DNA from: an uncultured Gammaproteobacteria bacterium
Lineage (GTDB): Bacteria; Patescibacteriota; Microgenomatia; UBA8517; JACQJR01
Direction of reading: 5' to 3'
NCBI GenBank assembly: GCA_964363945.1
Contig: CAYIKF010000001.1
Coordinates: 1 to 55,663 of the forward strand
DNA: 55,663 nucleotides
Positions 1,240-49,974 of the stretch are shown here, piece by piece (within the stretch, counting starts at the first letter, position 1; each line of letters begins with the position of its first letter). The notes beneath the pieces were generated by a model. That model worked only from the letters and a program-made list of their open reading frames with translations, had not been told where the DNA came from and ran no database searches. Both the position numbers and the translations under genes were made by a program.

Positions 1240-2091
1240 CTATCCTACATTCACTCTAAGATTTAAATCTGGATCATATACCCATTTTCTCCTATTTTTA
1301 TCATCGTAGTAATGCAAAATTCTAAGTCTATAGAAGACCGCTAATGTATCCCACGCCATTCTAAAAATAGTCGACCAGCGAATTCTGCTTGTTCTTATAT
1401 CAAACGTTACTTCGATTGGAGCTTCATAAATTCTTTTAAACCCCAGATAGCGTGCAACAGAAAGCATCTCTATATCCATGGCGTAGCGTTTCACCAGTAA
1501 TCTTGGCAAGACTTTATCTAAAACTTTCCTTCTGAATATCTTTATCCCACTTTGTGTATCAGTTAGTGATAGACCAAAAAGTACCTTTACTCCTAGGTGG
1601 TATCCCAAACTTAAAATATGTCGAAGCAGAGGATAATTTACGCGGGATACAGGGTGTCTTTTTGAACCAACAATAACATCAGCATTGTACCATTCCATAT
1701 GGGCCATGAGCATCATGATACCGGCTGGCGAAATATCCATTCCTGCATCCAAAAAAGAAATGAGTTCCCCACGTGAGCGCGCCATACCATATCGGACAGC
1801 ATATCCCTTGCCCTTATTTTCTTCGTAACTAATTACCTTTATCTTTTTAGATTTTATTTTTGATGCTTCTTTAAACGTACCGTCAATCATGCCGTCAACA
1901 ACACATATAATCTCATAATCGTGATCTCTTAAGCCTTCTTTTAAAACCATTTCTATATTTGTTAAGTCTTTCTTTATGGTACGTTCTTGTCTATAAGCTG
2001 GAATAATAACAGATAATAATTTATTTTGGGTTCCAGCTTTCAAGCTCCGCTTATAAGCTGGAATAATAACAGAGAGTAATCTCTTTCTCAT
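1240..2091 (-). CDS. Glycosyltransferase family 2 (GT-A)
   Basis: 283 aa with SVIIPAY first strand, ICVVDGMIDGT and LDAGMD motifs. ATGA overlap (2088-2091) with the upstream gene. The N-terminus holds a duplicated LLSVIIPAY segment (repeat 1992-2073). An in-frame TTG at 2041-2043 could be the ancestral start. Confidence 0.85.
   Translation of the reverse strand: MRKRLLSVIIPAYKRSLKAGTQNKLLSVIIPAYRQERTIKKDLTNIEMVLKEGLRDHDYEIICVVDGMIDGTFKEASKIKSKKIKVISYEENKGKGYAVRYGMARSRGELISFLDAGMDISPAGIMMLMAHMEWYNADVIVGSKRHPVSRVNYPLLRHILSLGYHLGVKVLFGLSLTDTQSGIKIFRRKVLDKVLPRLLVKRYAMDIEMLSVARYLGFKRIYEAPIEVTFDIRTSRIRWSTIFRMAWDTLAVFYRLRILHYYDDKNRRKWVYDPDLNLRVNVG
1992..2073. repeat. In-frame 60-bp tandem duplication marked by the 22-bp direct repeat TATAAGCTGGAATAATAACAGA (1992-2013 and 2052-2073)
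   Basis: Both copies were read directly. They encode the duplicated LLSVIIPAY segment of the GT2 at 1240-2091. Confidence 0.85.
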
Positions 2092-8159: not shown

Positions 8160-8177
8160 ATATTCATATATGAATAT
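8160..8177. repeat. 18-bp perfect palindrome ATATTCATATATGAATAT that fills the whole intercistronic gap
   Basis: Read directly. It is bounded by the TAA stop of 8178-9881 and the ATG of 6486-8159. Confidence 0.85.
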
Positions 8178-9881: not shown

Positions 9882-9888
9882 TGAATCA
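9874..9888. repeat. 15-bp palindrome TGATTCATTGAATCA that overlaps the start codon of 8178-9881
   Basis: Read directly (7+1+7). The ATG at 9879-9881 lies inside it. Confidence 0.75.
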
Positions 9889-9889
9889 T

Positions 9890-14944: not shown

Positions 14945-14961
14945 TACCTAAATTGTAGCAT

Positions 14962-19706: not shown

Positions 19707-21212
19707 ATGCCTAACATACGAAAATTTATCAACTATGCAAAAAAACATCCCCATTTAGTATTACTTTGCCTTATTCTTATAATCGCACTTTTTTTCAGAG
19801 CTTACAAGCTTATAGAGTGGTTTGAGTTTGCTCAAGATGGTGATCTTTATTCTTGGATTGTTAAGGATATTGTCGTCGATAAACATCTCAGGCTTATCGG
19901 GCAACTCACCACCGCTCCCGGCATATTTATTGGTCCTGCTTTTTATTACATACTTATCCCATTCTTCTTAGTTGCCCACATGGATCCAGTGGGAGCCGTT
20001 ATACCTATAACGCTCATGGGTGTATTGACTGTCGCGAGCTACTACTATGTATTTTCAAAACTCTTCAACAAAGAAGTGGGCCTCGTGGCAGCATTTTTAT
20101 ATGCCATATTACTTTCCCTCGTAATCTTTGACCGCCGCGTTGTGCCAAGCACTCCCACAAACTTGTGGCTTGTTTGGTATTTTTACACAGTTTTAATGAT
20201 TAGACGGGGCAACTTTTCTGTACTTCCTTTGCTTGGTGTTTTAATCGGACTGATATGGCACATCCATATTGCGCTTGCTCCAGCCCTTATAGCTGTACCC
20301 GTGGCACTGGTTCTCTCTGGCAAAATTCCCCCCTTGAAGAAAATTTTTCTATCTATCTTTGCTTTTTTTGTTATCTCCACACCGCTTATTTTTTTTGAGG
20401 CAAGACATAATTTTTCTCAGACAACAAGCTTTATCCAAAATCTTTTCATAAATCAAGGAGGAGGAACAGGATTTGAAAAAATGCAGCTTGTTATTATCAA
20501 GATGGTCGGAGATATTATTCGTTTATTCTTCTATCCTCAAGGCTTACCGTTTATAAATCATTATTTTTTTGTTGCGCTGCTGTTTCTGTCAGGGTTATTT
20601 CTTGTTAAGAAACAACTTCTTCATATTCGTGAATTAACGATTTTTTATGTATGGACGGGTACTATTGTTCTCTTCTATACATTCTCCTCAACTATAATCT
20701 CAGAATATTATTTTGCAAATATTGAGATTATCTTTTTAACTATAGCTGCCCTTCTTCTTTATTCGCTCTATAAATCCTCACGGCCTGGCAAATACTGGAC
20801 AATAGGCATACTACTTGTAGTCTTTTTCAAAAACTCATTCTTTTTTTTAACAACAGATATTTACCATAAAGGATATGTAGAGCGCAAAGGAGTGGCAGCT
20901 TTTATTACAGAAGACGCTCGAAAGCACGATTTGCCCTGTGTTGCAATCTCGTATATTACCTCCCCGGGAGAAAATGTAGGATTTCGCTATTTCTTTTTTT
21001 TGAATAACCTAAAAACAACTCAAATTCAAGAAGGAGCGGCAACTTACTCAATTGTACTACCACCTCATCTTGCGCAAGGTCAAAATGAAAAACTATTTGG
21101 TCAAATAAAAATTATACCTCCTGAAAAAATTCCTCCTACAGCAGAAATTACTAAAAGCTGTAGTGGCCAAAATACAAATCTAACTGATTCTCTATTTGGC
21201 TTTACTGACTAA
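19707..21212 (+). CDS. Polytopic membrane protein, uncharacterised GT-C-like family B (D-x-G-R-D type), the only plus-strand gene inside the locus
   Basis: 501 aa. QDGDLYSWIVKD...LRLIGQLTTAPGIFIGPAFYYILIPFF aligns by eye with the signature of 23533-25089, 41436-43052 and the C-terminal part of 43052-45277. Confidence 0.55.
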   Translation: MPNIRKFINYAKKHPHLVLLCLILIIALFFRAYKLIEWFEFAQDGDLYSWIVKDIVVDKHLRLIGQLTTAPGIFIGPAFYYILIPFFLVAHMDPVGAVIPITLMGVLTVASYYYVFSKLFNKEVGLVAAFLYAILLSLVIFDRRVVPSTPTNLWLVWYFYTVLMIRRGNFSVLPLLGVLIGLIWHIHIALAPALIAVPVALVLSGKIPPLKKIFLSIFAFFVISTPLIFFEARHNFSQTTSFIQNLFINQGGGTGFEKMQLVIIKMVGDIIRLFFYPQGLPFINHYFFVALLFLSGLFLVKKQLLHIRELTIFYVWTGTIVLFYTFSSTIISEYYFANIEIIFLTIAALLLYSLYKSSRPGKYWTIGILLVVFFKNSFFFLTTDIYHKGYVERKGVAAFITEDARKHDLPCVAISYITSPGENVGFRYFFFLNNLKTTQIQEGAATYSIVLPPHLAQGQNEKLFGQIKIIPPEKIPPTAEITKSCSGQNTNLTDSLFGFTD

Positions 21213-23532: not shown

Positions 23533-25089
23533 TTATTTTTTATACTTTCTGGGATGCTCCTCCCGCAATTGAACTATCAACCAAGAAGATTTATCACCAA
23601 AAACTTTTTCCTCAACAACCTTGCCGTATTGCTCTTGTTCAAACAGATACTGTTCAACAAACGCGTAACGCACGCCACGTGTTGGCTCTATAATGCTAAA
23701 CATTATATACTCCTCTTCTTGCGACTTCCAAGAAGGTAAAAATCCCGGGAAACCCGGTGCTACCTCACCCGCCCAATATGGTAAGTATCCATACTTATTC
23801 TTCCCATACCAGTTAAAAAGATAAGCCCACGTTGTATTTATCTTTAAAGGCATAGTGAGTGCTGATACCACAATTGGTTTTTTGTTTGCTTGTTGATATA
23901 TAAAATCCAACGCTTGTTTTTCTCGGGAAAGGAGCATCCCTTCTTGAACATAAATATCACTTATTACACCCTCAGAATTCCTTTTTGAAATAAGGACTAA
24001 ATTGCTTACCAAAATAACAATCATAAAAAATATTGCAATTGGTTTTTTACTTACATAGATTCTTGAAATTATGTAGGCAACAAGTAAGAGCAAGGCAGGA
24101 GCAATACCAATGTTTGAATAATAAAGCTTTGGTATGCCAAAAAGGAATAAAAAAGCACTCGACAAAAACCAAATAATTAAAAAGGTGATTTGCTTATAAT
24201 TATTTTTTTTATTAAGAATTAAATAAGAAAAATAAAACAACAGGACAGAAAGTACTAAAACTTGGATTATTTCCCTACCCGTAACAAGATTATCATGCAC
24301 ATGTAAAGTTAATTTATCCCAATATGCAAACAGTGGGGAAGTTTCTTGCTGATGTCTTCCAATTGATGTGACTGTTTCAATAAGCGTTGTGACCGTTCTA
24401 AAACCAAATTTTATTTCAGCAAGTACGAATGTTGAAACTGCAACGGAAAAAGAAAAAACTGATACCAAAATTCTTGGAATTGTCATTTGGGGAATTATCT
24501 CTTTTTTAAAGATCACAACGATAATTACAAAAATAAAACTTAAATAGATGAGAAAAAATTCAAACTGAATTGATAAGCCAAGAGCAAAAAGAGAGACTGG
24601 CAAACCAATCCAATTTTTCTTAAAAACAAGAAATGCTAATCCTGCATAAAACGTCATTACTGTTAATACCGCCGGTGCAGGATTGCCAAAATAAAGCGCA
24701 TACTGTGTTTGTTCATATGAAATAGCGTACAAAAATCCCGCAAAAACTCCTGTTGTCGGATTGAAAAGTGTTTTTCCTATCCAAAAAATACTAAAAACTC
24801 CGAGAGCATTAAGAAAGAGTAAGAATGCAGCGGAAATTTCCGGATTGCCTCCACTCAACCAATAGAACGGACCAATAAGATACCAATAAAGAGGACCATG
24901 GAAAAGATTTTCTGCGGCCGTTGAGGGACCAATAATTTTAAAATTTAAATTCTTATATATATCTAATGATTCAAACGCATCTCGTGCTTGGTCAAAACCG
25001 AAATAAATATTTTGAGGGAAAAACAAAAAGCGCACGACAATAGCGAATACAAAAATAGTAAAAGTAAGAAAAATTACTATCTTATCCAT
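23533..25089 (-). CDS. Polytopic membrane protein, GT-C-like family B
   Basis: 518 aa. FDQARDAFESL...FKIIGPSTAAENLFHGPLYWYLIGPFY is the family-B signature. Confidence 0.55.
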   Translation of the reverse strand: MDKIVIFLTFTIFVFAIVVRFLFFPQNIYFGFDQARDAFESLDIYKNLNFKIIGPSTAAENLFHGPLYWYLIGPFYWLSGGNPEISAAFLLFLNALGVFSIFWIGKTLFNPTTGVFAGFLYAISYEQTQYALYFGNPAPAVLTVMTFYAGLAFLVFKKNWIGLPVSLFALGLSIQFEFFLIYLSFIFVIIVVIFKKEIIPQMTIPRILVSVFSFSVAVSTFVLAEIKFGFRTVTTLIETVTSIGRHQQETSPLFAYWDKLTLHVHDNLVTGREIIQVLVLSVLLFYFSYLILNKKNNYKQITFLIIWFLSSAFLFLFGIPKLYYSNIGIAPALLLLVAYIISRIYVSKKPIAIFFMIVILVSNLVLISKRNSEGVISDIYVQEGMLLSREKQALDFIYQQANKKPIVVSALTMPLKINTTWAYLFNWYGKNKYGYLPYWAGEVAPGFPGFLPSWKSQEEEYIMFSIIEPTRGVRYAFVEQYLFEQEQYGKVVEEKVFGDKSSWLIVQLREEHPRKYKK

Positions 25090-27506
25090 AGCTTACCCAT
25101 TTTCATTAATCTATTTTTTCTAAACAAAAGAAACAACAAAATAACTAAAAGAGAAAACGCGCTAATTTTCAAACCGAGAAAGAATGATTCTGGTTTGTAA
25201 ATAAATTGAACTGTGTGTTCGCCTTTTAAAATAGGAATCGCCCGAAATGCAAAATTTGCTTTCAATAATTTCTCCTCCTTTCCATCTACATAAGCTTTCC
25301 ATCCGGGATAAAAAGTTTCAGAAACAAAAAGCATACCAGAGGACTCAGTTGTTACAATAAGTTTGCTTTCTTGCTCTCTATATTTTTTATAACGCACGCT
25401 ATTTTTTACTTCTTTACCATCTCCTCGTTGAATGCCTGGATTTTCAGAAAGAAGAATTTTTTCTCTTATTGAAAAATTTTTGTTAAGCAACGATTCTAAT
25501 AAGAGAGTGTCGTCATTTATTTCTTCCCAATCAAATACCATAAATGCCCGAGGAAGAGCATTTTTACTTTCTAAAACAGCTACTGACTTATCTTCAAACA
25601 CCACTCTAAAACGTTCAGGGTCAAAGCGTGGTGAAACTCTACCAGCAGCGCTTGGTTTATTTTCCTCGCCCCTTTTAATCGTAAGATAGTAAACCGTATT
25701 TGAAAGCTCAAGAAGAGGTGAGGTGACATTATCAACAATACCATATCTACCGGCTGGATTGGTTGCTACACTCTCGCTATTAATTGCAGCAATAAACTTT
25801 GATATATTCAGAGGATATGCTGCATCGTATCCTTCTAAAGACTCAAGACCGTATGCCATCCTCATATTAATAGGAATGACTTGAGAGCCAGTAATGCGAA
25901 CAGGTTTTTCCTTTTCAATTAAAAACTCAAGGACTGGTGTTGTGGGAAAAACAATGTGACGAGGAGAGAACGAAGTAAACTTCCACCCAAAACGAAAAAC
26001 TTCGAATAGTAAAACTGTGCACAAAATTACTACGCCAGTTTTTCTAAAAGCTTTTGTTTTTTGTCTTCGAAAGAACCATACAATAATAAAACTTACAAAA
26101 AAGATAAAAAGCGGAATGACAGAATTTCTTAAAGCAACAATATATTGCGGAATTCCTCTAACAAGAGGATGATAAATATCAGGATTGCTTTGGCTCAAAA
26201 AGAAAAAAATAATCGCATAAGTTGTAAATCCAACAACAGTAATTCCTGGAACAAGAAACGCCCATTTAATTCTTAGTTGTTTACTTTGTAAGAAGTATTC
26301 AACTCCAAAACCCGCAAGAAGTGCGACTGCTAAATTAGAAAGGACAAGCGCTCTGTGGGCAGACGCTGCTTGAAATCCTAAAAATCCACTTTTCCAAAGA
26401 AAAATAGAGACTGGGCTGGGAAAAGCAAAAACAAGAGATACGACCAGTAATATAAGACCGAATATTATTCCCTTTTGTTTTTTAACTAGGGAGATTGCAA
26501 GCCCAGCAAATACAGCAGCAACTACACCAACAAATCCTGTATTTGAGGTATAATCTTGAGGACCCCAATAGTTGCCTGTTGCATGATTTCCAAAGTAGTC
26601 GGGGGCAAAAAAGGTTATTATTTTGGCAAATGGTAAAAAGGCCCAATCAAACGGATGAGGCTCTATCTCTCTTTGCGAAAGAGATAATAATTCTGCTCCT
26701 GGCAAAATTTGAAATGCCGAAAGTCCCAAGCCCAATAAACCAAAAAACGCTAAGAAAATAGTTTTCTTTAAAAAAATAGACGACTTTTCCATCCTCACAA
26801 GCCATAGAACTCCCATGGCTAAAAATGAATAAAACATAACTTGCGGATACCCGGAAAGCATCTGAAGAGCAATAGAAATGCTTAGTCCTACTCCGAAAAT
26901 CCCTCGCCCACTCAAAAGCCACTTATCTTCAAATAATAAAATAAGAGGGATAAAGGCTGCTGCGAGAGCATGACCATTCCATTGCGACCACAACGTATTA
27001 AATCCGCTAAACGCAAAAGCAATACCTCCTACCATTGACGCGAATTGAGAAAGCTTCCAATTTCGGAGCAGTAGATACGCAAAAAGAGCAGCAAGTATAT
27101 GCTGCAATATAACCTGGATGCTCCATGCAGAGAGTTTATCAAATAGGAGATACACTACATTCGTTGGAGAAAAAGGTGCAGATTGAAAATTTGCAAGAAG
27201 CGGAGTTCCACCTAAAATATATGGATTCCATAATGGCCACTCTCCTTCTTTTAAAAGATCAACCGCCAGCATTTGCATCGGATAGGTAAATGAAACAACA
27301 TCTGCCATAATTGGATTTTTAACAGGAACTCCAACCTCATATCCCCATTTATAATCAAGCCAAGGAAAGTAAGAACCAACTACAAAATCTGCCGGAAGAG
27401 GAACTTTATTTTGTAACCAAACGGGATAAAAGAAAAGAAGAACTGATACAAAGATTGCCAGGATAGGCCAAATATTAGAGAATAACTTTAAGGATCTCAT
27501 CTTCAA
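25077..27506 (-). CDS. YfhO-family membrane glycosyltransferase (GT-C)
   Basis: 809 aa. Large polytopic N-terminal part containing YFGNHATGNYWG. The C-terminal domain TFYPGWKAYVDGKEEKL...GEHTVQFIY plus a terminal TM helix is as in YfhO-type proteins. Confidence 0.7.
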   Translation of the reverse strand: MKMRSLKLFSNIWPILAIFVSVLLFFYPVWLQNKVPLPADFVVGSYFPWLDYKWGYEVGVPVKNPIMADVVSFTYPMQMLAVDLLKEGEWPLWNPYILGGTPLLANFQSAPFSPTNVVYLLFDKLSAWSIQVILQHILAALFAYLLLRNWKLSQFASMVGGIAFAFSGFNTLWSQWNGHALAAAFIPLILLFEDKWLLSGRGIFGVGLSISIALQMLSGYPQVMFYSFLAMGVLWLVRMEKSSIFLKKTIFLAFFGLLGLGLSAFQILPGAELLSLSQREIEPHPFDWAFLPFAKIITFFAPDYFGNHATGNYWGPQDYTSNTGFVGVVAAVFAGLAISLVKKQKGIIFGLILLVVSLVFAFPSPVSIFLWKSGFLGFQAASAHRALVLSNLAVALLAGFGVEYFLQSKQLRIKWAFLVPGITVVGFTTYAIIFFFLSQSNPDIYHPLVRGIPQYIVALRNSVIPLFIFFVSFIIVWFFRRQKTKAFRKTGVVILCTVLLFEVFRFGWKFTSFSPRHIVFPTTPVLEFLIEKEKPVRITGSQVIPINMRMAYGLESLEGYDAAYPLNISKFIAAINSESVATNPAGRYGIVDNVTSPLLELSNTVYYLTIKRGEENKPSAAGRVSPRFDPERFRVVFEDKSVAVLESKNALPRAFMVFDWEEINDDTLLLESLLNKNFSIREKILLSENPGIQRGDGKEVKNSVRYKKYREQESKLIVTTESSGMLFVSETFYPGWKAYVDGKEEKLLKANFAFRAIPILKGEHTVQFIYKPESFFLGLKISAFSLLVILLFLLFRKNRLMKMGKLWIR

Positions 27507-37306: not shown

Positions 37307-39025
37307 CTACATTCTAGCACGCGAAAGCCGTTTCCTCCACCATGGAAGCGCAATAAGTATTCCCCAAGAAACAAGAGAAATTAAATTTCCAGCGGTGCGG
37401 GGAAAAGTATTGTAGAGTTTGGCGTAAATTTCGTGCTCGCCTTCTGGAATGGTTATGTGCATTCGACCTAACTCGTCATTATCTCCGGTAATTTCTGTTT
37501 CTTCCCCGTCAATAAATACTCGCCAATTTGGAAATTGAAAAATATTTATTCGAACCTTTCCCTCACCTCTATCCACTCTTACCTTAAATCTTATCCAATT
37601 AGTTCCTTCTTTTGCCTCGTCTATAGCTACCTCACCCTCAACAACATCAACTGGCGTTAGTCTTGGCCCTTGAGGTGCAATTCTTGCTGTTTTTGGGAGA
37701 TAATCATAAATCCCCGCCGTCTGTTGAAGCTCCCACGCAGCGGCTGAGAATTTTTCCTCGTCACTTAAAGGACCCATGCGATCAGGTTTGAAGTAGTCAT
37801 TGTTAAACAACACTACTGCAACCAAAAGTATGATAACTAAAACTAACGTCCACCTACTTCTTACATTAAGAAGCACAGCGAGCGCTCCTATAACAAATGA
37901 AAAAGAAAGAATGACAATTGTTAAAAATCGCCAAGGAAACTGAACAATAGAAAGGAATGGTAAACTTAGCCAAATGGGAGTTGAGCGCACATGGGCCATG
38001 AAGGCGGCGGCGAAGCCAACTACAAGTAAATAGCTAATAATTAACAGTAAATTGGGTGAAATCTTTTGTTTTCTAAGAAAAACAGCTGCTGATAAAGTAG
38101 CAATTACTAGTGCCAGTATCCAGTGTATATGCCCAATTTGGAACGACATCCCGTCACCCTCACCCCACACGGATGGTCCATAGCCCCAAAATCGAGAAAA
38201 AAACAATTGATTAATATCTGCAAAATGGGCAATGTATTCGTAATATCCTTTTGTGAGTGTATCGACGTGTACCAATTTCTGCTCCAGAAGAACCGGAATA
38301 CTTGAAAAGCTAGCCAATCCTGCAGCCCATATACCTGAAATCATAAGTTGGGGAATTCTGCTCCACGCATACTTTCGCCACAACCAAAGTAAACACCAAC
38401 CAGCAAACACCGGAGTAAAGATAAGTACCATAATATTGTGCGACAAAAGGAGTGCTGTCCATGAAAGCGCTAGAATAACAATCCAACTTGTTACTTGTTT
38501 CTTATTACTTATTAACTTATACGCGCTCCACAAAATAAGCGGAAACCACACCAACGCCCATGCCTCATTCATTGCTCCCCGCACATAAACATCAACCGCA
38601 TGATACGGAGCCCACACATAAAATACACTCGACAGTACCCCGCCAAGCCGGCCCCAAAATTCGCGCGCTAAAATATACATCGTTACTGCGGACAACAGGA
38701 AACTCAAGAAAAAGGTGAGCTTCACCGTCGTAATAAAAGAAACACCTGTGAGTCTTATCACCTGCCCTACCAGATAGGGGAGTGGCGGATAGTAGTTAAA
38801 GAGTGGAAATCCATACCCATACCCCATATCCGGTACCCAACGGCAGGGAATTTGAAAATCTTTAAAGCACTTCTCCATCTCAAGCTGGCGCATCATTTGT
38901 AAATCGTCATGCATGTTGAAGTATCCAGATGTGAGCAACACGCGACCAGCAAGAAATCCTAAAAATACTACCAAGACAAGTGGCCAAAAATTAGGATGAC
39001 TCGTAATTCTTCGCAAGAATTTCAT
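37307..39025 (-). CDS. Polytopic membrane protein, YfhO/PTPS-related-type, paralog of 11568-13247
   Basis: 572 aa. MHDDLQMMRQLEMEKCFKDFQIPCRWVPDMGYGYGFPLFNYY parallels the N-terminus of 11568-13247. The C-terminal FQFPNWRVFIDGEETEI...GEHEIYAKLY plus a terminal TM helix is YfhO-like. Confidence 0.55.
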   Translation of the reverse strand: MKFLRRITSHPNFWPLVLVVFLGFLAGRVLLTSGYFNMHDDLQMMRQLEMEKCFKDFQIPCRWVPDMGYGYGFPLFNYYPPLPYLVGQVIRLTGVSFITTVKLTFFLSFLLSAVTMYILAREFWGRLGGVLSSVFYVWAPYHAVDVYVRGAMNEAWALVWFPLILWSAYKLISNKKQVTSWIVILALSWTALLLSHNIMVLIFTPVFAGWCLLWLWRKYAWSRIPQLMISGIWAAGLASFSSIPVLLEQKLVHVDTLTKGYYEYIAHFADINQLFFSRFWGYGPSVWGEGDGMSFQIGHIHWILALVIATLSAAVFLRKQKISPNLLLIISYLLVVGFAAAFMAHVRSTPIWLSLPFLSIVQFPWRFLTIVILSFSFVIGALAVLLNVRSRWTLVLVIILLVAVVLFNNDYFKPDRMGPLSDEEKFSAAAWELQQTAGIYDYLPKTARIAPQGPRLTPVDVVEGEVAIDEAKEGTNWIRFKVRVDRGEGKVRINIFQFPNWRVFIDGEETEITGDNDELGRMHITIPEGEHEIYAKLYNTFPRTAGNLISLVSWGILIALPWWRKRLSRARM

Positions 39026-40668: not shown

Positions 40669-41439
40669 TCAATACTTCCCCATCAAATCATTCCACCTAA
40701 TTCTTATCATATCTTTTATAGCATCAAGGGAATCTTTGATTAATTGTACTCGCTCTGTTCCTACGTGATGCCATTCAACTGGGACTGAGGCAATTTTAAA
40801 TCCCTTTTTACGAGCTATGAAAAGTGTCTCCACATCAAATCCTGCATGAACTGCTGCTCCTACCGTCTTCATTCTCTCCCATCTATCTTTCATCTTTGGA
40901 AAGAGTGTTTCTCGTGACCGTCGATTAAAAGCTTTAAAACCACATTGCGTGTCTTTAAACGGTAAGCCTAAAATAATGTTTCTCACAATAGCAAATCCCA
41001 GTGCTACAAGTTTTCTTATTAATGGAGCCCCTTTTCTCCCCGCTCGCGAACCAATCACAATGTCGTACCCAACTTTGAATTTAGGAAGAAATTTCTCAAC
41101 TTCTGACAAGGGTGTTGCTTGATCCATATCGGTAAAAAGCGCTATCTCACCGTTAGCAGCCAATAAACCTGTCATTACCGCTAATGCTTTCCCGCCGTGT
41201 GGGTTTTCAATTAATTGCCACGCGGAGCGTGGTCCCGCTTCGCGGGAAAATTTGAGTCCTTTTATAAATTTTCTAACGAGTTCTCGCGTTCTATCGATTG
41301 ACCCATCATCAACCAAAATCACCTCATAAGAATATTTTGTATTCTTTAAGTAATTTACAACCTCACTCAAAACCTCCTTTTTAAGATTTTGCTCCTCGTT
41401 ATATGCTGGAATAATAATTGATAAATATATTTTGGTCAT
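40669..41439 (-). CDS. Polyprenyl-phosphate glycosyltransferase (Dpm1/GtrB/ArnC-like GT2)
   Basis: 256 aa with LSIIIPAYNEEQNL, LVDDGSIDRT, TDMDQ and DTQCGFKAF, the hallmark set of Dpm1/GtrB-type synthases. Contains an in-frame GC double-hairpin insert (FSREAGPRSAWQ). Confidence 0.8.
   Translation of the reverse strand: MTKIYLSIIIPAYNEEQNLKKEVLSEVVNYLKNTKYSYEVILVDDGSIDRTRELVRKFIKGLKFSREAGPRSAWQLIENPHGGKALAVMTGLLAANGEIALFTDMDQATPLSEVEKFLPKFKVGYDIVIGSRAGRKGAPLIRKLVALGFAIVRNIILGLPFKDTQCGFKAFNRRSRETLFPKMKDRWERMKTVGAAVHAGFDVETLFIARKKGFKIASVPVEWHHVGTERVQLIKDSLDAIKDMIRIRWNDLMGKY
41218..41250. repeat. GC-rich double-hairpin element (CCACGC-GGA-GCGTGG plus TCCCGC-TTC-GCGGGA) inside the Dpm1-like gene
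   Basis: Read directly. Same family as 29959-29991 but in the opposite orientation relative to the host ORF. Confidence 0.8.
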
Positions 41440-43052
41440 TTGGTTACTGGGTTACTTGGTTGCTGGGTAACCCTATGTCTCTTCTGTACAGTTATTCCTC
41501 CAAACCTCACCTCTTTCTCCACTTTACCAATATTAACTTGGCGTGCCAACCATGCATCTAACCGCTCGGGGTGTGGCGGGTCAACCTCATAGAGTGTATA
41601 AAGAAGTGGTACGTGCTCCTCTTTCGGTACTATCCCGTATCTTGTTGTCCCCCACCACAAAAATAAATAATCATAAGCATAGGGGATTACCGGCGGAACA
41701 TAAGAATCAACATTAAAAGGAGCAGCACCAGCATCTTCGTAGACCCAGTTAATTGCTTGTTTTTGATTGCCAAATGCAATCGTTGTTGGTCCATCAACAC
41801 CTGCTGTTATATATCCGCGAGCGACTGGCACGTTCACCTGTAAAAATAAGTACACAAAAATACCGAGTATCACTTTTCCAAGTATTCCTTGAGCCAACAT
41901 CCCAAGTAACACTGCAAAAATCAAAACAAAAATAAGATAGTAGCCCGTGAAGTAATAATCATACACATTCCCATAATTTCCCCGGAAAAATAACATTCCA
42001 AATAGCGCAGAAATAAAAAGAAGTAAAAGTGTAAGAAAATTACTATTTTTAAATAATTGAATTCTGTTAATCAGAAGTGAAAAAACCACAACTGCTGCAA
42101 AAAAAACTTTGTAATTTTGCGCTCCCAAAAAAATTTTAGAGAAAAAGACATCAAAATAAAAAGGGAATCTAATTTTTACAACTTCCCAAAATGAACTTTT
42201 AAAACTATCTTCTCCAAACAAAAATTTGATAATCCCCGCTCTCAAAATTCCATCATGGCGCAAATCAAAAATAATTTGGGGGAGTAAAGTGATAAGAAAT
42301 AAGCAAGAAGCAAGAAGTAATGTTCTGATATCAGGTAAGTTTTTTCGCTGCCCGCTTCGACTCGAGGCGAGCCATAGAGCAAAAATAGCAACTGCTGGAA
42401 AGTAAAAAATCTCAGCTGCACTTCCAAACTGCATTGCAAACCCTAGCATAAATCCAGTAATAATCCATGCCCACCGTTTGCCTTTTATAATTAAAAACAA
42501 AGAAAGTACAAGCAACATACTAATAAGAAACATTGGTGTGGGATTAGACAACCAACGGGAAGCATAAACTAAAGTAAAAGAAAAAGAAGCTATTGTGGCA
42601 GCTACCAGCCCCGTTATCCTACCTTGAACCATTACACCCAGAACATAAAGTACTAAGATAGCAGCAACTGTTGTGAAAGATAAGAATATAGATGGCCATA
42701 CGGGATCGCCTTTGCCAAGAAAATAAAAAGGAGCAATCAACCAATAATACCAGGGTCCTCTAAATATTCCTTCAATACCAGTTGTCGGACCAATAAGGAA
42801 AAATTTACCATTATGTAATAAGTCCCAAATAATTTTTGCATCTCTCCCTTGGTCATAATAGAATCCTAACAGCTGGTCAATTCTCCATACCCGCACCAAA
42901 AAAGCGCCTAAGAGAATTACTGCCAGAATCACGTACACGCCCTTATTGGCCGATATCTCAACATTCAAACCCCGCCACCACTCTCTTACCTCTGTTACAC
43001 TATTATCCTGAAAGGACAAGCTCTGCTTATGTAAGGGTGTAAGATTTGCCAT
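41436..43052 (-). CDS. Polytopic membrane protein, GT-C-like family B
   Basis: 538 aa. YYDQGRDAKIIWDLL...FFLIGPTTGIEGIFRGPWYYWLIAPFY is the family-B signature. 4-nt overlap with the Dpm1-like gene downstream. Confidence 0.55.
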   Translation of the reverse strand: MANLTPLHKQSLSFQDNSVTEVREWWRGLNVEISANKGVYVILAVILLGAFLVRVWRIDQLLGFYYDQGRDAKIIWDLLHNGKFFLIGPTTGIEGIFRGPWYYWLIAPFYFLGKGDPVWPSIFLSFTTVAAILVLYVLGVMVQGRITGLVAATIASFSFTLVYASRWLSNPTPMFLISMLLVLSLFLIIKGKRWAWIITGFMLGFAMQFGSAAEIFYFPAVAIFALWLASSRSGQRKNLPDIRTLLLASCLFLITLLPQIIFDLRHDGILRAGIIKFLFGEDSFKSSFWEVVKIRFPFYFDVFFSKIFLGAQNYKVFFAAVVVFSLLINRIQLFKNSNFLTLLLLFISALFGMLFFRGNYGNVYDYYFTGYYLIFVLIFAVLLGMLAQGILGKVILGIFVYLFLQVNVPVARGYITAGVDGPTTIAFGNQKQAINWVYEDAGAAPFNVDSYVPPVIPYAYDYLFLWWGTTRYGIVPKEEHVPLLYTLYEVDPPHPERLDAWLARQVNIGKVEKEVRFGGITVQKRHRVTQQPSNPVTK

Positions 43053-45277
43053 TATGGTTTTCCGCTTGGGTTATGCACCAATTTGTATACCTTTACCCCC
43101 GCCACATCCCACTCTTCATCGATTTTTGACCAGCCAAAAACTGTAATTTCCGCCTTTGGGCTGTGAGTTGGGTCGCATTTTTCTTGAGGTAATTCACACA
43201 CAACGAATAATTGCTCGGCAACTGTTTCTTCGTAACGGAGCGGATCAATATCCCGGACCGGCTCTCTCCACCATTCAAGGAAATACTGATACGCATCTTC
43301 ATAATTACGCTCGGCCAAGACAGCCAAATTAAATGTTTGACCTTTTGCTTCCTGCACAATCTTCGCCGACACCTCTTCCGTCCTTTGAAGTTGTCTTTGT
43401 GGTGGATTTTTAATTGGCGTCTGGTAAAGATTTAGAACAACCAACCCTACTATACCAATCAATAATATCCACCTGAAACCTGGCACCTGAAACCTGGCAC
43501 CTGAAACCTGTTGGGCAATCATGCCCAACAGTACGAATGGTACCATAAACATAAATCCAAAATAGTGGTCGTAGATATTTTGTTTTAAAAGAGCCATACC
43601 ACTTAAACCGAACCCCGTCCAAACAAGAAGGAGAAAAGCGGGTGACTGGAAGAATGTTTGGCGCTGTTTGACTACAATCCAAAACGTACCTATAAGGGTA
43701 ACCACGGCAACGAGTTTTCCCCACAATTCGTTCATTGCGCCAACCAAACGTGTAATCTCTTGCTGGAACAATGGCCACAGTTCTGGAATTGCATTCCAAG
43801 GACGAGCAGAAACAGTGGCTTGACGCTCGGTAAAGAAAATGCGCATTGCCTCAAAATTGCGCCAACCATGGCGGGCATCAAAGATGACAAGAGGAGACAT
43901 TAAGACTGCGAATATTACAATAGAAATCAGGGTATATCGCAGTAATTTTCCAATTTCCAATTTCCAATTTCCAATTAGTTTCGAATTGCGAATTTGAAAA
44001 AATGTTAATAACCAAAAAAGGCCTATTGTTGGAGCAAGGAGAAGGCCGAGATAGTGTGACTGTAACACGAACGCATACGATACCCCAAGCACAATAAGCC
44101 ATTTCCATTCCTGATACTTCCAGACACGCCAAATACTATAAATAGAAAGTATAGCAAAAAAGGGCATGATATTAGGATTCCAAGAGGAGCGAGAATAAGT
44201 AACGACAACCGGTGAAACTGCATACAAACTTGCGGCAACAACTGCCGCTACTTTTCCAAACCACTCCCTGCTAACCCACCAAACAAATCCAATAGTAATC
44301 ACTCCGAGAGTAGCAATTTGTGCTACGGGACCAACTGGGGAAAGACGAAAAAGAAAAAGTGCCGGTGCCATCAGGTAATAATAAAGGGGTCCTAGATACA
44401 TATTGCCAATAGAGGTACCCGGACCGACTAAAATAGGGTCGAAGTCAACGAGCAGACGGCGTACCACAATCGCATCTCTCCCCTCATCTCCCAGGAAAGT
44501 CATATATTCTGATAATCGATAAAATCGAAGAAACGCACCAACGATTAAAATTGTGAGTAAGGCAAAAAATTCAAGTTTCGGCAAGAATTTCCACCAAATT
44601 TTAAAAAGATCGATGTAAGACTGTATTATTACTTTTATATTAGCTCCCGTAGGTCTGCCAGCAAGACGTGGATAATGGTTAACCCCCACTTCAACAACGC
44701 TGAACCCAAATTTTTTAGCCTTTATTGCAAGTTCTGCATTAATCATTCCTCCCCGTTTTGACTCAAGATGTGGAATCTGCTCAAGTACTCTTCTTTTAAT
44801 CATCTTAAAACCACAATCAACATCCCTCAGTTTTAAACCAAAAAGGGTAAATAAGGATAACGCCCATCCTTTTGCAAAAAGAAGTCTAAAAAATGGGTCT
44901 TGCCTTTTAATCCTGTATCCAACAATCAAATCAGCGGTATCTAATTTTTCTATAAATTTTGAACTTTCTGAAAAATCAAATTGCCCATCAGAATCTGTAT
45001 ACGCAATTACATCATACTTGGCATTATAAAATCCTGACTTTAAAGCCTCACCATAACCTAAGTTTTTCTTATGACTAACAACACGAATGTTAGGATAGTG
45101 CTTCTCTAACTTTTGGGCAACTTCAAGGGTTTTATCACTTGAGCCGTCATTAACAATAATGACTTCCCACTGTGCCGCAATTTTTTTAAGGACACCAATT
45201 GTTTTCTCAACTGTACGTTCTAAATTTGCTTCTTCGTTATAAGCAGGGAAGAAGACGGAGAGCGCGCTGATTTTCAT
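43052..45277 (-). CDS. Fusion protein: N-terminal Dpm1/GtrB-like polyprenyl-phosphate glycosyltransferase (GT2) plus C-terminal GT-C-like family-B membrane domain
   Basis: 741 aa in one uninterrupted ORF. Residues 1 to about 230 carry LSVFFPAYNEEANL, IVNDGSSDKT, TDSDGQ, DVDCGFKM and HYPRLAGRPTG. The rest is polytopic and carries GDEGRDAIVVRRL...ILVGPGTSIGNMYLGPLYYYLMAP. It contains a GGAAATT array and a 14-mer array. Confidence 0.75.
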   Translation of the reverse strand: MKISALSVFFPAYNEEANLERTVEKTIGVLKKIAAQWEVIIVNDGSSDKTLEVAQKLEKHYPNIRVVSHKKNLGYGEALKSGFYNAKYDVIAYTDSDGQFDFSESSKFIEKLDTADLIVGYRIKRQDPFFRLLFAKGWALSLFTLFGLKLRDVDCGFKMIKRRVLEQIPHLESKRGGMINAELAIKAKKFGFSVVEVGVNHYPRLAGRPTGANIKVIIQSYIDLFKIWWKFLPKLEFFALLTILIVGAFLRFYRLSEYMTFLGDEGRDAIVVRRLLVDFDPILVGPGTSIGNMYLGPLYYYLMAPALFLFRLSPVGPVAQIATLGVITIGFVWWVSREWFGKVAAVVAASLYAVSPVVVTYSRSSWNPNIMPFFAILSIYSIWRVWKYQEWKWLIVLGVSYAFVLQSHYLGLLLAPTIGLFWLLTFFQIRNSKLIGNWKLEIGKLLRYTLISIVIFAVLMSPLVIFDARHGWRNFEAMRIFFTERQATVSARPWNAIPELWPLFQQEITRLVGAMNELWGKLVAVVTLIGTFWIVVKQRQTFFQSPAFLLLVWTGFGLSGMALLKQNIYDHYFGFMFMVPFVLLGMIAQQVSGARFQVPGFRWILLIGIVGLVVLNLYQTPIKNPPQRQLQRTEEVSAKIVQEAKGQTFNLAVLAERNYEDAYQYFLEWWREPVRDIDPLRYEETVAEQLFVVCELPQEKCDPTHSPKAEITVFGWSKIDEEWDVAGVKVYKLVHNPSGKP
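43471..43510. repeat. Tandem 14-mer array ACCTGAAACCTGGC, about 2.9 units, in frame in the fusion gene
   Basis: Read directly. It encodes SGARFQVPGFRW. Confidence 0.9.
43947..43974. repeat. Tandem heptamer array (TTTCCAA)x4 on the plus strand, GGAAATT on the coding strand
   Basis: Read directly. It encodes LIGNWKLEIGK in the fusion gene. Confidence 0.95.
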
Positions 45278-45304: not shown

Positions 45305-46462
45305 ATGCGACTCAACGAAAGAGTACTCCATATTCTTGCCATCGCAGCTGCCACTCTCATCCCTCCTATCCTTGTGTGGGCACCCTTTTTCATACGAATG
45401 CCATCCTTTTGGGGAATAAAGCTACCTCAAGAGGGTATGGCAACAATCATCGCTAATTTTGACGGCCCTTACTATATTGTGGCGGCAAAAACCCTCTATA
45501 ACACTGCTGCTTTGGGGCAATTCGAATTTCCTCTTCCCAAAGAATACTATGCTGCTCACTTCCCCGCCTTTCCGCTCCTCATTCGTGCGTTCTCTCCTCT
45601 CTTTGGATATCCATGGGCAATGATGATTGTCACGCTCCTCTCTTCGTTCGTGGCACTCATGCTATTTTATCTGCTCATCCGACAGGTAGGACTTAAGACA
45701 CACGCACTATGGCTTACATTGGTATTTGCAGTTTTTCCTGCTCGGTGGTTAATTGTCCGTTCAGTCGGTTCCCCCGAACCCCTCTTCATCGCAGCAGTTC
45801 TGGCGAGTTTTTATTTCCTCTTACGAGGAAATTATTGGGCGACGGGTATCGCGGGTGCTGTCGCAATGTTTACTAAATCTCCCGGGATTTTACTGTTTGC
45901 CGCGCTCACTGCAGCACTCGCCGCACCACACATTCATAACCTTTTCATCCAACCGACGAGTACTCTTCGAAAGCTTTTACCCCAAGGTTTACCGCTTCTC
46001 TTTATTCCTGCCACGGTTTTACTGGTGTTTGCCTGGTATGCACGCGCGTATGGCGACTTTTTCGCATATTTCCATTCCGGGGACAACATCCATCTTCTTT
46101 TTCCCCCTTTTCAAGTATTTAATGCCGCACAAACTTGGGTTGGGACATTTTGGCTTGAAGAAATTAACTGGCTTTACCTTTTCGGCTTTTTAGGGGTGTT
46201 TGCCTTAATTAAAAAGCGTCAATTTCCGTTTGCATGGTTTGTAGGAACATTTTTTGCATCAACCCTATTTGTCTCCCATAGAGATATCGCTCGTTATATC
46301 CTCCCAATTGTTCCATTTTTATTTATCGCTTTTTCTGACGTACTTACCAGTCGCCCCTTCAGGTGGGCACTTGCACTCCTTTTGCTCCCCATTTATCTGT
46401 CCGCGCTCAATTTTATTATCGGGAATGTCACTCCAATTGCCGACTGGAGACCACTGTTGTAA
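45305..46462 (+). CDS. Polytopic membrane protein, PIG-V-like (GT-C), paralog class of 3371-4537
   Basis: 385 aa with DGPYYIVAAKTLY...YYAAHFPAFPLLIRAF and about 9 TM helices. Divergently arranged, 27 bp from the fusion gene. Confidence 0.5.
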   Translation: MRLNERVLHILAIAAATLIPPILVWAPFFIRMPSFWGIKLPQEGMATIIANFDGPYYIVAAKTLYNTAALGQFEFPLPKEYYAAHFPAFPLLIRAFSPLFGYPWAMMIVTLLSSFVALMLFYLLIRQVGLKTHALWLTLVFAVFPARWLIVRSVGSPEPLFIAAVLASFYFLLRGNYWATGIAGAVAMFTKSPGILLFAALTAALAAPHIHNLFIQPTSTLRKLLPQGLPLLFIPATVLLVFAWYARAYGDFFAYFHSGDNIHLLFPPFQVFNAAQTWVGTFWLEEINWLYLFGFLGVFALIKKRQFPFAWFVGTFFASTLFVSHRDIARYILPIVPFLFIAFSDVLTSRPFRWALALLLLPIYLSALNFIIGNVTPIADWRPLL

Positions 46463-48765: not shown

Positions 48766-49974
48766 TTAGAATATATTTTTGAGCTTTGCGTAGACTTTTG
48801 CAAAACTCCAGCGTCTCCAAATAAAGAGATTATACATTGTGTAATTGTAGGGAATAATTAAGAATGCAACAGCAATAACAAGGAAAGTTTGACGAACAAG
48901 TCGGGTATCCCCAAAGAAAATAACGCCTGTACCAACCACCAAGGATTGAATGACAATTGCCCCAAAGGAAGTGAGATTAAATTGAACAAACTTTTTTATA
49001 TACCGAAGAGGGCCTTTTATCTGTATATCCTCAAAGGTCCACAAATTATCAAGGTTGAAGTTTGAGAAAATAGCCAATTCCGCAGCTGCTGCAGCTGCCC
49101 AAAAAGAAGGTTCGGCAATTACGGCAAAAGAGGTATCACGAGCTTGGACAAAAAATCCCGCTAGAGCCTGCGTCCAGGGCAACATCCGGAAAACCTCAAG
49201 ACCCACAGCGTTAATGACAAATCCTATCCCTCCAACAATTGCAAACTTTAGAAATCGAGTCCTCAGCCGCAACACAATAAAAAACGTATCAAATGTTTCT
49301 TTTAATTTGAATTTTGATTGTTCTGCCTTCCTTGGCAAAAAGGCAATAGGAACTTCCTTAACTTTTGCCCCCAATTTTAAAAGTTCGAAAAGAAGGTGAA
49401 TTTTGTACGCATAACTTGCTTTTCCGAATAAGCTATCAAGCGCGACCTTTGATAATACCTTTGTTTTCGTTAAACGAAATCCAGTGGTCAAATCGTGAAC
49501 TTGGGGTAAAAAAAGAACTGTTCTGGCAAAAAGATTACCGCCAAACGAGAGGAATTTCCTATAAAATGCCCACTCTTTCGGAACGGATCCGCCTTTTATG
49601 TAGCGTGACCCGATAACTACATCGGCTTGCTGGGAAGCAGCGACTAAGCGCGGGACATCCGCAGGATTGTGCTGGAAATCTGCGTCCATTTCAACCACTG
49701 CATCTGCCTTCATCTTGGCAATTGCATATTTCATTCCCCTGATATAGGCAAAACCAAGACCCTGTTTTTCTCCAGTCATTAAGTGAAGATTTTTGTATTT
49801 CTTCGTCGCTTCACGAACGACTTCTCCTGTGCCGTCAGGAGAGTTATCATCAACTACAAGTAAATGCATTTCGTGGTCGCGAATTTTAGGAAATTCTTCC
49901 TCAAAAAGCACGTCAATCATCCGAGCAATATTCCCCCGCTCGTTGTATGTCGGCATGATAATGACAATACGCAT
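48766..49974 (-). CDS. Dpm1-like polyprenyl-phosphate mannosyl/glycosyl-transferase (GT2) fused to a C-terminal GtrA-like 4-TM domain
   Basis: 402 aa with IVIIMPTYNERGNI, VVDDNSPDGTGE, EMDADFQH and DLTTGFRL. After about residue 240 there are four hydrophobic helices (FLKFAIVGGIGFVINAVG...) resembling GtrA-family proteins. Confidence 0.8.
   Translation of the reverse strand: MRIVIIMPTYNERGNIARMIDVLFEEEFPKIRDHEMHLLVVDDNSPDGTGEVVREATKKYKNLHLMTGEKQGLGFAYIRGMKYAIAKMKADAVVEMDADFQHNPADVPRLVAASQQADVVIGSRYIKGGSVPKEWAFYRKFLSFGGNLFARTVLFLPQVHDLTTGFRLTKTKVLSKVALDSLFGKASYAYKIHLLFELLKLGAKVKEVPIAFLPRKAEQSKFKLKETFDTFFIVLRLRTRFLKFAIVGGIGFVINAVGLEVFRMLPWTQALAGFFVQARDTSFAVIAEPSFWAAAAAAELAIFSNFNLDNLWTFEDIQIKGPLRYIKKFVQFNLTSFGAIVIQSLVVGTGVIFFGDTRLVRQTFLVIAVAFLIIPYNYTMYNLFIWRRWSFAKVYAKLKNIF

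Follow-up and report, generated by a model that had tools for sequence, protein, structure and literature searches.

A Dpm1/GtrB-like GT2 domain fused to an ArnT/PMT-like GT-C domain in a surface-glycan gene island of a Microgenomates bacterium

Results

A single reading frame joins two glycosyltransferase-like modules

We examined a 55,663-nt stretch of DNA (NCBI assembly GCA_964363945.1, contig CAYIKF010000001.1, positions 1 to 55,663; hereafter the window), which is filed under an uncultured Gammaproteobacteria bacterium and placed by GTDB in the Microgenomatia of the Patescibacteriota. Our subject is one minus-strand gene, an open reading frame (ORF) in which a glycosyltransferase family 2 (GT2) domain resembling polyprenyl-phosphate sugar synthases is followed by a polytopic domain resembling GT-C-fold transferases; coordinates are collected in Table 1. 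A first-pass annotation made from the letters alone had described a 741-residue protein with two modules, and had proposed domain scans, a database search for the same architecture and prediction of the full-length structure as checks. The 741-codon frame starts with ATG and is uninterrupted in the ORF list, without an internal stop, and on read-through of the sequence the domain junction (44500-44680) stays open in frame. Pfam assigned Glycos_transf_2 (PF00535) to residues 7-168 (E = 2e-29) and PMT_2 (PF13231) to residues 297-426 (E = 1.8e-11, 45 bits vs a cutoff of 26.1), with a PMT match of 21.9 bits, slightly under its cutoff of 22.7. An AlphaFold2 model of the whole protein, computed with 56 homologues as input, had a mean pLDDT of 91.2 and a pTM of 0.87. 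As judged from sequence and model, the protein is an ArnC/GtrB/Dpm1-like GT2 domain joined to an ArnT/PMT-like GT-C domain. The fusion protein neither reached nor approached any equivalog cutoff in the NCBIfam scan, so that no named enzyme qualifies as its orthologue.

A homologue search over 5.8 billion proteins returned 2962 matches. Among the best 120, nearly all were 700-750 aa long and carried both PF00535 and PF13231 at 99-100% query coverage; full-length homologues with both Pfam domains number more than 100. The named sources of these 120 were Microgenomates, Daviesbacteria and 'Patescibacteria group' assemblies (NCBI, JGI, ENA, Logan), and additional fused representatives came from Beckwithbacteria and others, with no spread outside Microgenomates among the named representatives checked. 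The sequences are thus already public, but carry no functional annotation: the labels given to these additional representatives are 'glycosyltransferase', 'hypothetical protein' or 'Glycosyltransferase 2-like domain-containing protein' and nothing more specific.

Short homopolymer runs at the junction (cttttt aaaa ttt), and the presence of two separate genes in close relatives, are what would be expected if an assembly error or frameshift had joined neighbouring genes. However, the same fusion occurs in 34 species-level genomes and, across independent assemblies, in over 100 protein clusters. The window's protein is a 100% match to an entry present on two contigs (P0001), a second fused protein (P0002, locus L002) is 87% identical to it, and the linker region is in frame and conserved in the 56 fused homologues. 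We regard an artefact as vanishingly improbable.

The N-terminal half resembles polyprenyl-phosphate sugar synthases

The first-pass annotation had assigned the N-terminal module to the Dpm1/GtrB type, and the motifs that it quoted were located in the sequence. With phmmer, this half matched ArnC (9bhc, E = 4e-16), the Pyrococcus furiosus dolichyl-phosphate-mannose synthase PfDPMS (5mlz, E = 8.7e-16) and GtrB (5ekp), with E values from 4e-16 to 4e-12, and hhalign comparison of the family profile with E. coli ArnC gave a probability of 99.5% (E = 1.8e-22). The alignments to ArnC cover the interface and juxtamembrane helix region: the segment RQDPFFRLLFAKGW... aligns with the interface-helix region of ArnC, and HYPRLAGRPTG aligns with HHAEREFGESKYS. 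All of these motifs, with D95, D97 and Q99 of DSDGQ among them, are unchanged across the 56 fused homologues. In a Foldseek search of the Protein Data Bank (PDB) with the model of the fusion, ranks 1-25 were taken exclusively by ArnC, GtrB and DPMS structures (ArnC 9bhc, E = 7e-12). Fold and motifs thus point to a GT2 of the Dpm1/GtrB/ArnC type, with putative synthase activity.

We also considered that the domain might have an ordinary GT2 role and glycosylate, on the cytoplasmic side, a glycan that is either soluble or lipid-linked; the two halves would then serve different steps of one pathway instead of making and using one donor. The NCBIfam matches all lie far under their cutoffs and include families not associated with polyprenyl phosphate (PgaC, TuaG, EpsE), as such a role might predict. 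These latter matches, however, are confined to the first ~100 residues, whereas the matches to ArnC, DPMS and AglJ extend over more than 200 residues and include the interface-helix region, and the composition of the 25 best structural matches also speaks for a synthase. This makes an ordinary GT2 very improbable.

One orthologous fused protein from a Logan assembly (P0150, 736 aa) has an N-terminal GT2-like domain without the catalytic motifs: TDSDGQ is replaced by LRADAGL and DVDCGFK by GVGVGLE, and Pfam gave no GT2 match at 1e-4. In this protein, the degenerate domain may be a pseudo-enzyme kept for structure.

The GT2 domain borrows its membrane anchor

GtrB, ArnC and PfDPMS have C-terminal transmembrane (TM) helices of their own, which are absent from human-type DPM1 and mycobacterial Ppm1. 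In the AlphaFold2 model, as assigned with DSSP, the GT2 module of the fusion has no TM helix and ends at residue ~232; two residues separate its last amphipathic helix (residues 214-231) from TM1 of the GT-C domain (residues 234-252). The full-length phmmer alignment pairs residues 3-257 of the fusion with residues 7-256 of ArnC, and since it extends to residue 257, TM1 of the GT-C domain sits where ArnC has its first TM helix. Sequence and model thus indicate that this helix holds the GT2 domain at the membrane. The GT2 proteins of the split orthologues described below terminate after the juxtamembrane helix, and two stand-alone GT2 paralogues in the window (40669..41439 and 1240..2091) likewise lack TM helices.

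The C-terminal half resembles ArnT-type transferases

Below the synthase structures, the Foldseek search with the fusion model listed ArnT at rank 26 (5f15, E = 6.6e-8, 616 aligned columns, TMt 0.52) and the oligosaccharyltransferase AglB at rank 32 (3wak, E = 5e-7). These fold matches therefore place the C-terminal half in the ArnT/PMT/oligosaccharyltransferase branch of the GT-C fold. The first-pass annotation had called the module a family-B polytopic domain of about 500 aa, and its GT-C nature was upheld by these matches and by the PMT_2 assignment. When aligned to E. coli ArnT with hhalign (E = 5.9e-5), FLGD264E265GR267DA of the fusion falls on WQPD31E32TR34YA, the acidic motif of the first outer loop. 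F261, L262, G263, D264, E265, R267 and D268 are unchanged in the 56 fused homologues, and D264 is one of only six columns that are invariant over all family-B paralogues. Further invariant positions in the fused homologues, in addition to the SWNPN and DHY motifs, are Q406/H408/Y409, D467 and C694/C701. By homology to ArnT, the DE loop would face outward.

The membrane domain is followed by a soluble domain whose strands and helices (residues 629-735; DSSP on the model) are predicted with pLDDT >90, and which is shared, through residue 738, with the stand-alone paralogue 41436..43052. On the analogy of ArnT and PglB, this domain probably lies outside the cytoplasm and binds the acceptor. Motif and fold together suggest that the GT-C half is a transferase. 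In P0150, the GT-C motifs FLADEGRDA, SRSSWNPN and DHY are intact; because this half is preserved even where the GT2 motifs have decayed, it is under selection beyond anchoring.

Fused and split orthologues interchange among related genomes

A scan with one genome per species found a relative in 525 genomes, of which the best 80 loci were retained (from Daviesbacteria, Woesebacteria, Amesbacteria and Microgenomates); ORFs were classified in 81 loci from species-level genomes. The GT2 and GT-C modules are fused in 34 of the 81 loci and split in 47, and the split genes are adjacent or overlapping and always ordered GT2 then GT-C. In the closest split relative (L001; 66% identity to the window in the GT-C half), a GT2 of 234 aa stops at the equivalent of residue 228, placing the break at residues 228/229 of the fusion, and a GT-C of 511 aa begins after a 10-nt spacer with its own ATG and in a different frame. 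When the GT-C halves were placed on a neighbour-joining tree, the fusion of the window grouped within a split clade, as sister to L001, and Fitch parsimony requires at least four changes between the fused and split states. The fused arrangement has thus arisen or dissolved several times within Microgenomates. This recurrent fusion and fission, with invariant adjacency, argues strongly that the two modules act together, and they probably form a physical complex.

The first-pass annotation had read the fusion as Rosetta-stone evidence, and the link between the modules is borne out by these loci. It had concluded from the link that family B uses a polyprenyl-phosphate sugar; this already follows from membership of the GT-C group and is not new information. 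To our knowledge, characterised GT-C enzymes all use lipid-phosphate-linked donors.

When the family was defined by the GT-C half by itself, 440 representatives (50% identity level) scored at E ≤ 1e-30. Among the best 150, stand-alone proteins of ~500 aa predominate, and at least five of the 150 carry a recognisable fused GT2, in addition to the degenerate P0150. One relative with a C-terminal extension (P0167, 706 aa) was considered as a possible fusion in the reverse order and was found to be without a GT2 domain. In one locus (L080, 5980-8156), a break within the GT-C half leaves the fused gene as two ORFs (462 and 262 aa), either because of a sequencing error or because it is a pseudogene. 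Several 'binchicken'/TPA records of metagenome-assembled genomes (L003, L005, L010, L016 and others) are titled 'uncultured Gammaproteobacteria' or 'Pseudomonadales' and hold a Microgenomates-type cluster at 45-87% identity; these titles look like placeholders or wrong taxonomy.

The neighbouring GT-C and GT2 genes are distant paralogues

Directly downstream of the fusion lie a stand-alone GT-C gene and a stand-alone GT2 gene (Table 1), which the first-pass annotation had presented as a split version of the same pair. Their positions and 4-nt overlap (ATGA) were confirmed; the description as a split copy was not. The GT-C protein is only 25% identical to residues 238-738 of the fusion (E = 2e-29) and the GT2 31% identical to residues 6-232 (E = 1e-25), and their order, GT-C then GT2, is the reverse of that in the fusion. 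On sequence comparison these are old, distant paralogues of the fusion halves, and the true split orthologues are those found in other genomes. The TAA stop of the fusion shares 1 nt with the ATG of the next gene (TAATG), through which the stand-alone GT-C gene is translationally coupled to the fusion.

Both stand-alone genes accompany the fusion in the window and in L002, and a second GT-C and a second GT2 lie downstream in L001 as in the window. Woesebacteria-type loci are split, with the GT2 and GT-C orthologues of the fusion halves followed after ~1 kb by the stand-alone GT-C, often another GT-C, and the stand-alone GT2. A reverse-order fusion (GT-C then GT2) of this second pair was absent among the 81 loci.

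Upstream of the fusion, the window encodes a different kind of fused protein, in which a GT2 domain is joined to a GtrA/DPMS_TM domain. A homologue of this gene lies upstream on the same strand, at a distance of 1-4 kb, in 63 of the 81 loci, some of the remainder having little or no upstream sequence in the retrieved stretch; it is also present in L001. Its GtrA-type domain is the only one detected in the window, and a stand-alone small GtrA-like ORF was not found within the window.

The window as a whole is a surface-glycan gene island with ~20 GT-C-like membrane proteins (PMT_2, YfhO, PTPS_related and PIG-V-like), cytoplasmic GT2s, a Wzx-like protein, a GlcU-like sugar transporter and four Dpm1-like GT2s, and the fusion gene is placed in an operon-like run of GT-C and GT2 genes. 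Among the family-B paralogues, the PMT_2 match of 23533..25089 (25.1 bits) is slightly under the cutoff. Six tandem PMT_2-type GT-C paralogues of 536-602 aa, with 24-38% mutual identity, form an unusually dense array at 6486-19654 (minus strand), interspersed with a YfhO/PTPS-related-like gene (11568-13247) and an unassigned 426-aa membrane protein (16569-17849). The former is 35% identical to another PTPS_related/YfhO-like paralogue (37307-39025; both minus strand), and these two, as well as an 809-aa YfhO-family protein (25077-27506, minus strand, E = 6.6e-29), are GT-C-type candidates.

The fourth Dpm1-like GT2 without TM helices (1240-2091, minus strand, 283 aa) is 29% identical to the GT2 of the fusion and overlaps by 4 nt the upstream gene for a Wzx-like Polysacc_synt_3 protein (2088-3371, minus strand, 427 aa). 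Two small polytopic proteins, encoded at 3371-4537 (minus strand) and 45305-46462 (plus strand), are 28% identical to each other; one of the pair matches PIG-V-type Mannosyl_trans2 and the other the 'AZOBR_p60025 family cell surface glycopolymer formation protein' (E = 6e-9). The gene at 45305-46462 is divergent from the fusion gene, with 27 nt between the start codons.

Table 1. Coordinates of the fusion gene, its predicted domains and motifs, and related genes in the window
Feature	Position	Strand	Residues or length	Details and basis
Fusion ORF, GT2 + GT-C	43052..45277	-	741 aa	ATG start; stop codon 43052-43054
GT2 (GT-A fold) polyprenyl-phosphate glycosyltransferase-like domain	44582..45277	-	aa 1-232	phmmer, hhalign, Foldseek
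DSDGQ (D95-x-D97-x-Q99), predicted metal/nucleotide-sugar binding DXD motif	44981..44995	-		Alignment to DADLQ of ArnC and PfDPMS
Interface helix RQDPFFRLLFAKGWALSLFTLF of GT2 domain	44840-44905	-	includes DSSP helix aa 129-146	DSSP on AlphaFold2 model
DVDCGFK motif of GT2 domain	44804-44824	-		Computed coordinates
HYPRLAGRPTG motif of GT2 domain	44645-44677	-		Computed coordinates
Juxtamembrane helix IKVIIQSYIDLFKIWWKF of GT2 domain, amphipathic	44585-44638	-	aa 214-231	DSSP on AlphaFold2 model
Polytopic GT-C membrane domain, ~13 helices	43418..44581	-	aa 233-620	Pfam PMT_2/PMT, Foldseek
TM1 of GT-C domain	44522..44578	-	aa 234-252	DSSP helix
FLGDEGRD, first loop after TM1, candidate catalytic acidic motif	44474..44497	-	aa 261-268	Conservation, hhalign
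SWNPN, invariant GT-C motif	44171-44185	-	aa 365-369	56 homologues
DHY, invariant GT-C motif	43562-43570	-	D570-H-Y572	56 homologues
C-terminal alpha/beta soluble domain	43055..43417	-	aa 621-741	DSSP, conservation
Stand-alone family-B GT-C paralogue	41436..43052	-	538 aa	PMT_2; TAATG overlap with fusion
Stand-alone Dpm1/PgfS-like GT2 without TM helices	40669..41439	-	256 aa	ATGA overlap with preceding gene
GT2 + GtrA/DPMS_TM fusion, PfDPMS-like architecture	48766..49974	-	402 aa	PF00535 + PF04138
Family-B GT-C paralogue	19707..21212	+	501 aa	PMT_2; BLASTP to fusion aa 249-474, E 3e-16
Family-B GT-C paralogue	23533..25089	-	518 aa	BLASTP to 41436..43052, E 2.5e-25

Discussion

A putative synthase and transferase in one polypeptide

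The interpretation that we favour, with some reserve, is that the fusion is a two-in-one synthase-transferase of extracytoplasmic, polyprenyl-phosphate-dependent glycosylation. The cytoplasmic GT-A domain would use its DSDGQ motif to transfer a sugar from a nucleotide sugar to a polyprenyl monophosphate, presumably undecaprenyl phosphate, at the inner face of the membrane, as ArnC, GtrB and Dpm1 do. TM1 of the GT-C domain would anchor this domain, and in the split relatives the synthase would presumably dock onto the separate GT-C subunit. The lipid-linked sugar would then cross the bilayer, for which the obvious candidate is the GtrA-type domain of the neighbouring GT2-GtrA protein. At the outer face, the GT-C domain would use D264/E265 in its first outer loop to pass the sugar to an acceptor, possibly a surface glycan, protein or lipid, with the C-terminal soluble domain probably contributing to acceptor binding. 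The product of the GT2 would thus be the donor for the GT-C half, and fusion would be predicted to fix the two activities at a 1:1 stoichiometry, to co-locate maker and user, and to allow local recycling of the carrier lipid.

Several observations weigh against this interpretation. The best NCBIfam score of the GT2 half is 69 bits for ArnC vs a cutoff of 529, followed by PgfS at 62.5 vs 500. For the GT-C half, the hhalign probability against ArnT is only 65%, and a sequence-profile search of the PDB gave marginal matches (AglB, E = 0.016; PMT, E = 1.5). At the second conserved Asp of ArnT (in LDPF), in the same 65%-probability alignment, the fusion has M371 within NPNIMPFF, a region with no acidic counterpart; the invariant residues near this site are N367 and N369. 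Adjacency and fusion, moreover, show functional or physical association; they do not prove that one domain makes the donor which the other consumes. Finally, Daviesbacteria-type loci are fused and have the stand-alone GT2 directly after the fusion, with a 4-nt overlap (for example L004, 5980-8918, and L012, 6001-8909) and no stand-alone GT-C between. Since this second GT2, also without TM helices, has no GT-C of its own, the pairing of synthase and transferase is not strictly one-to-one, and a single GT-C may host two different synthases in these loci.

The Daviesbacteria-type arrangement would also suit a GT-C module that mainly tethers or activates a synthase lacking TM helices, with the product feeding other GT-Cs of the island instead or as well. 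The absence of TM helices from the fusion's GT2 and both stand-alone GT2 paralogues fits such a role, as does the ratio of ~20 GT-C-like proteins to only four Dpm1-like GT2s in the island, and there are precedents in Ppm2/Lnt for Ppm1, GacJ for GacI and Rv3632 for PpgS. Yet the GT-C half keeps the invariant acidic motif of the outer loop and a conserved soluble domain, and its motifs are intact in P0150 despite the decayed GT2. We consider a role chiefly as anchor or activator unlikely; it is in any case compatible with a combined synthase and transferase and not exclusive of it.

Translocation of the lipid-linked sugar

A further possibility is that the GT-C-like module moves the newly made polyprenyl-phosphate sugar across the membrane, the role that has been proposed for Haloarcula Agl23 alongside the Agl22 synthase, and that other GT-C paralogues are the transferases. 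Residues 240-463 of the fusion match positions 4-222 of the 435-position profile TIGR03663, 'flippase activity-associated protein Agl23' (E = 8e-9), purified Haloarcula hispanica Agl23 (HhAgl23) translocated M5GN2-PP-Dol in proteoliposomes (PMC11182771), and the window has yielded no stand-alone small GtrA gene. The match, however, scores 35 bits vs a cutoff of 126.25, and membership of the Agl23 family was rejected. The fusion also has features of a transferase, namely an invariant DE motif and a large C-terminal domain that is conserved, and in 63 of the 81 loci a GtrA-type membrane domain is found close by. It also counts against a translocase that we know of no characterised GT-C transferase that flips its donor. 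A synthase-translocase is, on this evidence, distinctly unlikely.

Returning to the combined synthase and transferase, a conventional route of translocation is available because the GT2-GtrA_DPMS_TM gene lies upstream in the 63 loci noted above. The first-pass annotation had suggested channelling of the lipid intermediate, including its flipping, within a single polypeptide. Such a self-sufficient fusion or two-subunit complex, which would make the polyprenyl-phosphate sugar, conduct it across the bilayer through the GT-C membrane domain and spend it, is conceivable because of the flippase activity reported for the distantly related Agl23, and we hold it to be quite improbable. If true, it would mean that the GT-C fold doubles as the long-sought translocation path for monosaccharide-phosphate polyprenols.

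GT-C enzymes were already known to spend the polyprenyl-phosphate sugars that GT2 synthases make; what the fusion adds is that, amid about twenty GT-C genes, one particular GT-C paralogue can be assigned its synthase, with the implication that maker and user are probably in a physical complex. As a single well-predicted polypeptide (pLDDT 91), it allows both putative active sites and the membrane path between them to be viewed together, and so bears on the unsolved problem of how monosaccharide-phosphate polyprenols cross membranes. Moreover, extracytoplasmic glycosylation in bacteria of the candidate phyla radiation (CPR) looks unusually heavy, and the fusion contributes to that picture.

Comparison with known systems

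In the literature that we searched, which included the papers on three-component glycosylation systems and was incomplete in coverage, we found no description of a natural synthase-GT-C fusion. We also know of no described natural GT2-GT-C fusion or obligate-looking two-gene unit. The arrangement differs from known systems in the covalent fusion or overlapping gene pair, the synthase anchor borrowed from the transferase, the placement of the GtrA-type domain on a different synthase, and the repeated gain or loss of the fusion within Microgenomates.

The closest parallels in organisation are the three-component systems GtrB-GtrA-GtrX, CsbB/GtlA-GtcA-YfhO/GtlB and GacI-GacK-GacL, in which a GT2 synthase and a GT-C transferase form the core and are clustered with a GtrA-family domain nearby (PMC11127046, PMC7389260, bioRxiv 10.1101/180810). 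In function, the fusion would be a compact, two-in-one version of that core. In those systems the synthase and transferase are separate, whereas here they occur in one polypeptide or as overlapping genes. The synthase described here has no TM helices of its own, and in place of a small stand-alone GtrA the GtrA-type domain is fused to a second GT2.

ArnC and ArnT of E. coli and Salmonella, which work with the ArnE/F flippase, are the best sequence and fold matches for the two halves. Identity is only ~20%, however; ArnC has two TM helices of its own, and the second Asp of ArnT is unmatched in the 65%-probability alignment. The Arn genes are separate and non-adjacent, in contrast to the single gene or adjacent genes found here, and a CPR bacterium cannot be presumed to have lipid A, the Arn acceptor.

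Precedents for a membrane-associated partner of a synthase come from Ppm1, GacI and PpgS. Mycobacterium tuberculosis Ppm1 (Rv2051c) resembles the fusion in that a polyprenyl-phosphate-mannose synthase without TM helices is fused to, or encoded beside, a polytopic partner: Ppm1 is a two-domain protein in M. tuberculosis, M. smegmatis and C. glutamicum have adjacent ppm1 and ppm2 genes, and the partner has been proposed to anchor and activate the synthase (PMC3460810). That partner, however, is Lnt, an N-acyltransferase of the CN-hydrolase type and not a GT-C, and the order is membrane partner then synthase; Pfam and NCBIfam found no CN-hydrolase/Lnt domain in the fusion, whose partner domain is PMT_2. 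In the GacI-GacJ and PpgS-Rv3632 pairs, a GT2 undecaprenyl-phosphate-sugar synthase is complexed with an adjacent membrane protein, with some natural fusions: GacJ stimulates GacI, to which it binds and is 'sometimes fused', and Rv3632 does likewise for PpgS (bioRxiv 10.1101/180810). GacJ and Rv3632 differ in being small DUF2304 proteins with no catalytic role.

Two other systems share elements with the fusion. Agl22 and Agl23 of Haloarcula hispanica pair a dolichyl-phosphate-hexose synthase with a TIGR03663 membrane protein (Lu et al. 2020, cited in PMC11182771). HhAgl23 is described as a putative hexose-phosphate-dolichol flippase (PMC11182771) and not as a transferase, whereas the fusion combines a C-terminal domain with a DE motif like that of transferases. 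The DPMS of Pyrococcus furiosus (5mlz) has a similar GT-A catalytic core and interface helices, and differs in its GtrA-like domain of four TM helices, an architecture shared with the neighbouring GT2-GtrA protein and not with the GT2-GT-C fusion.

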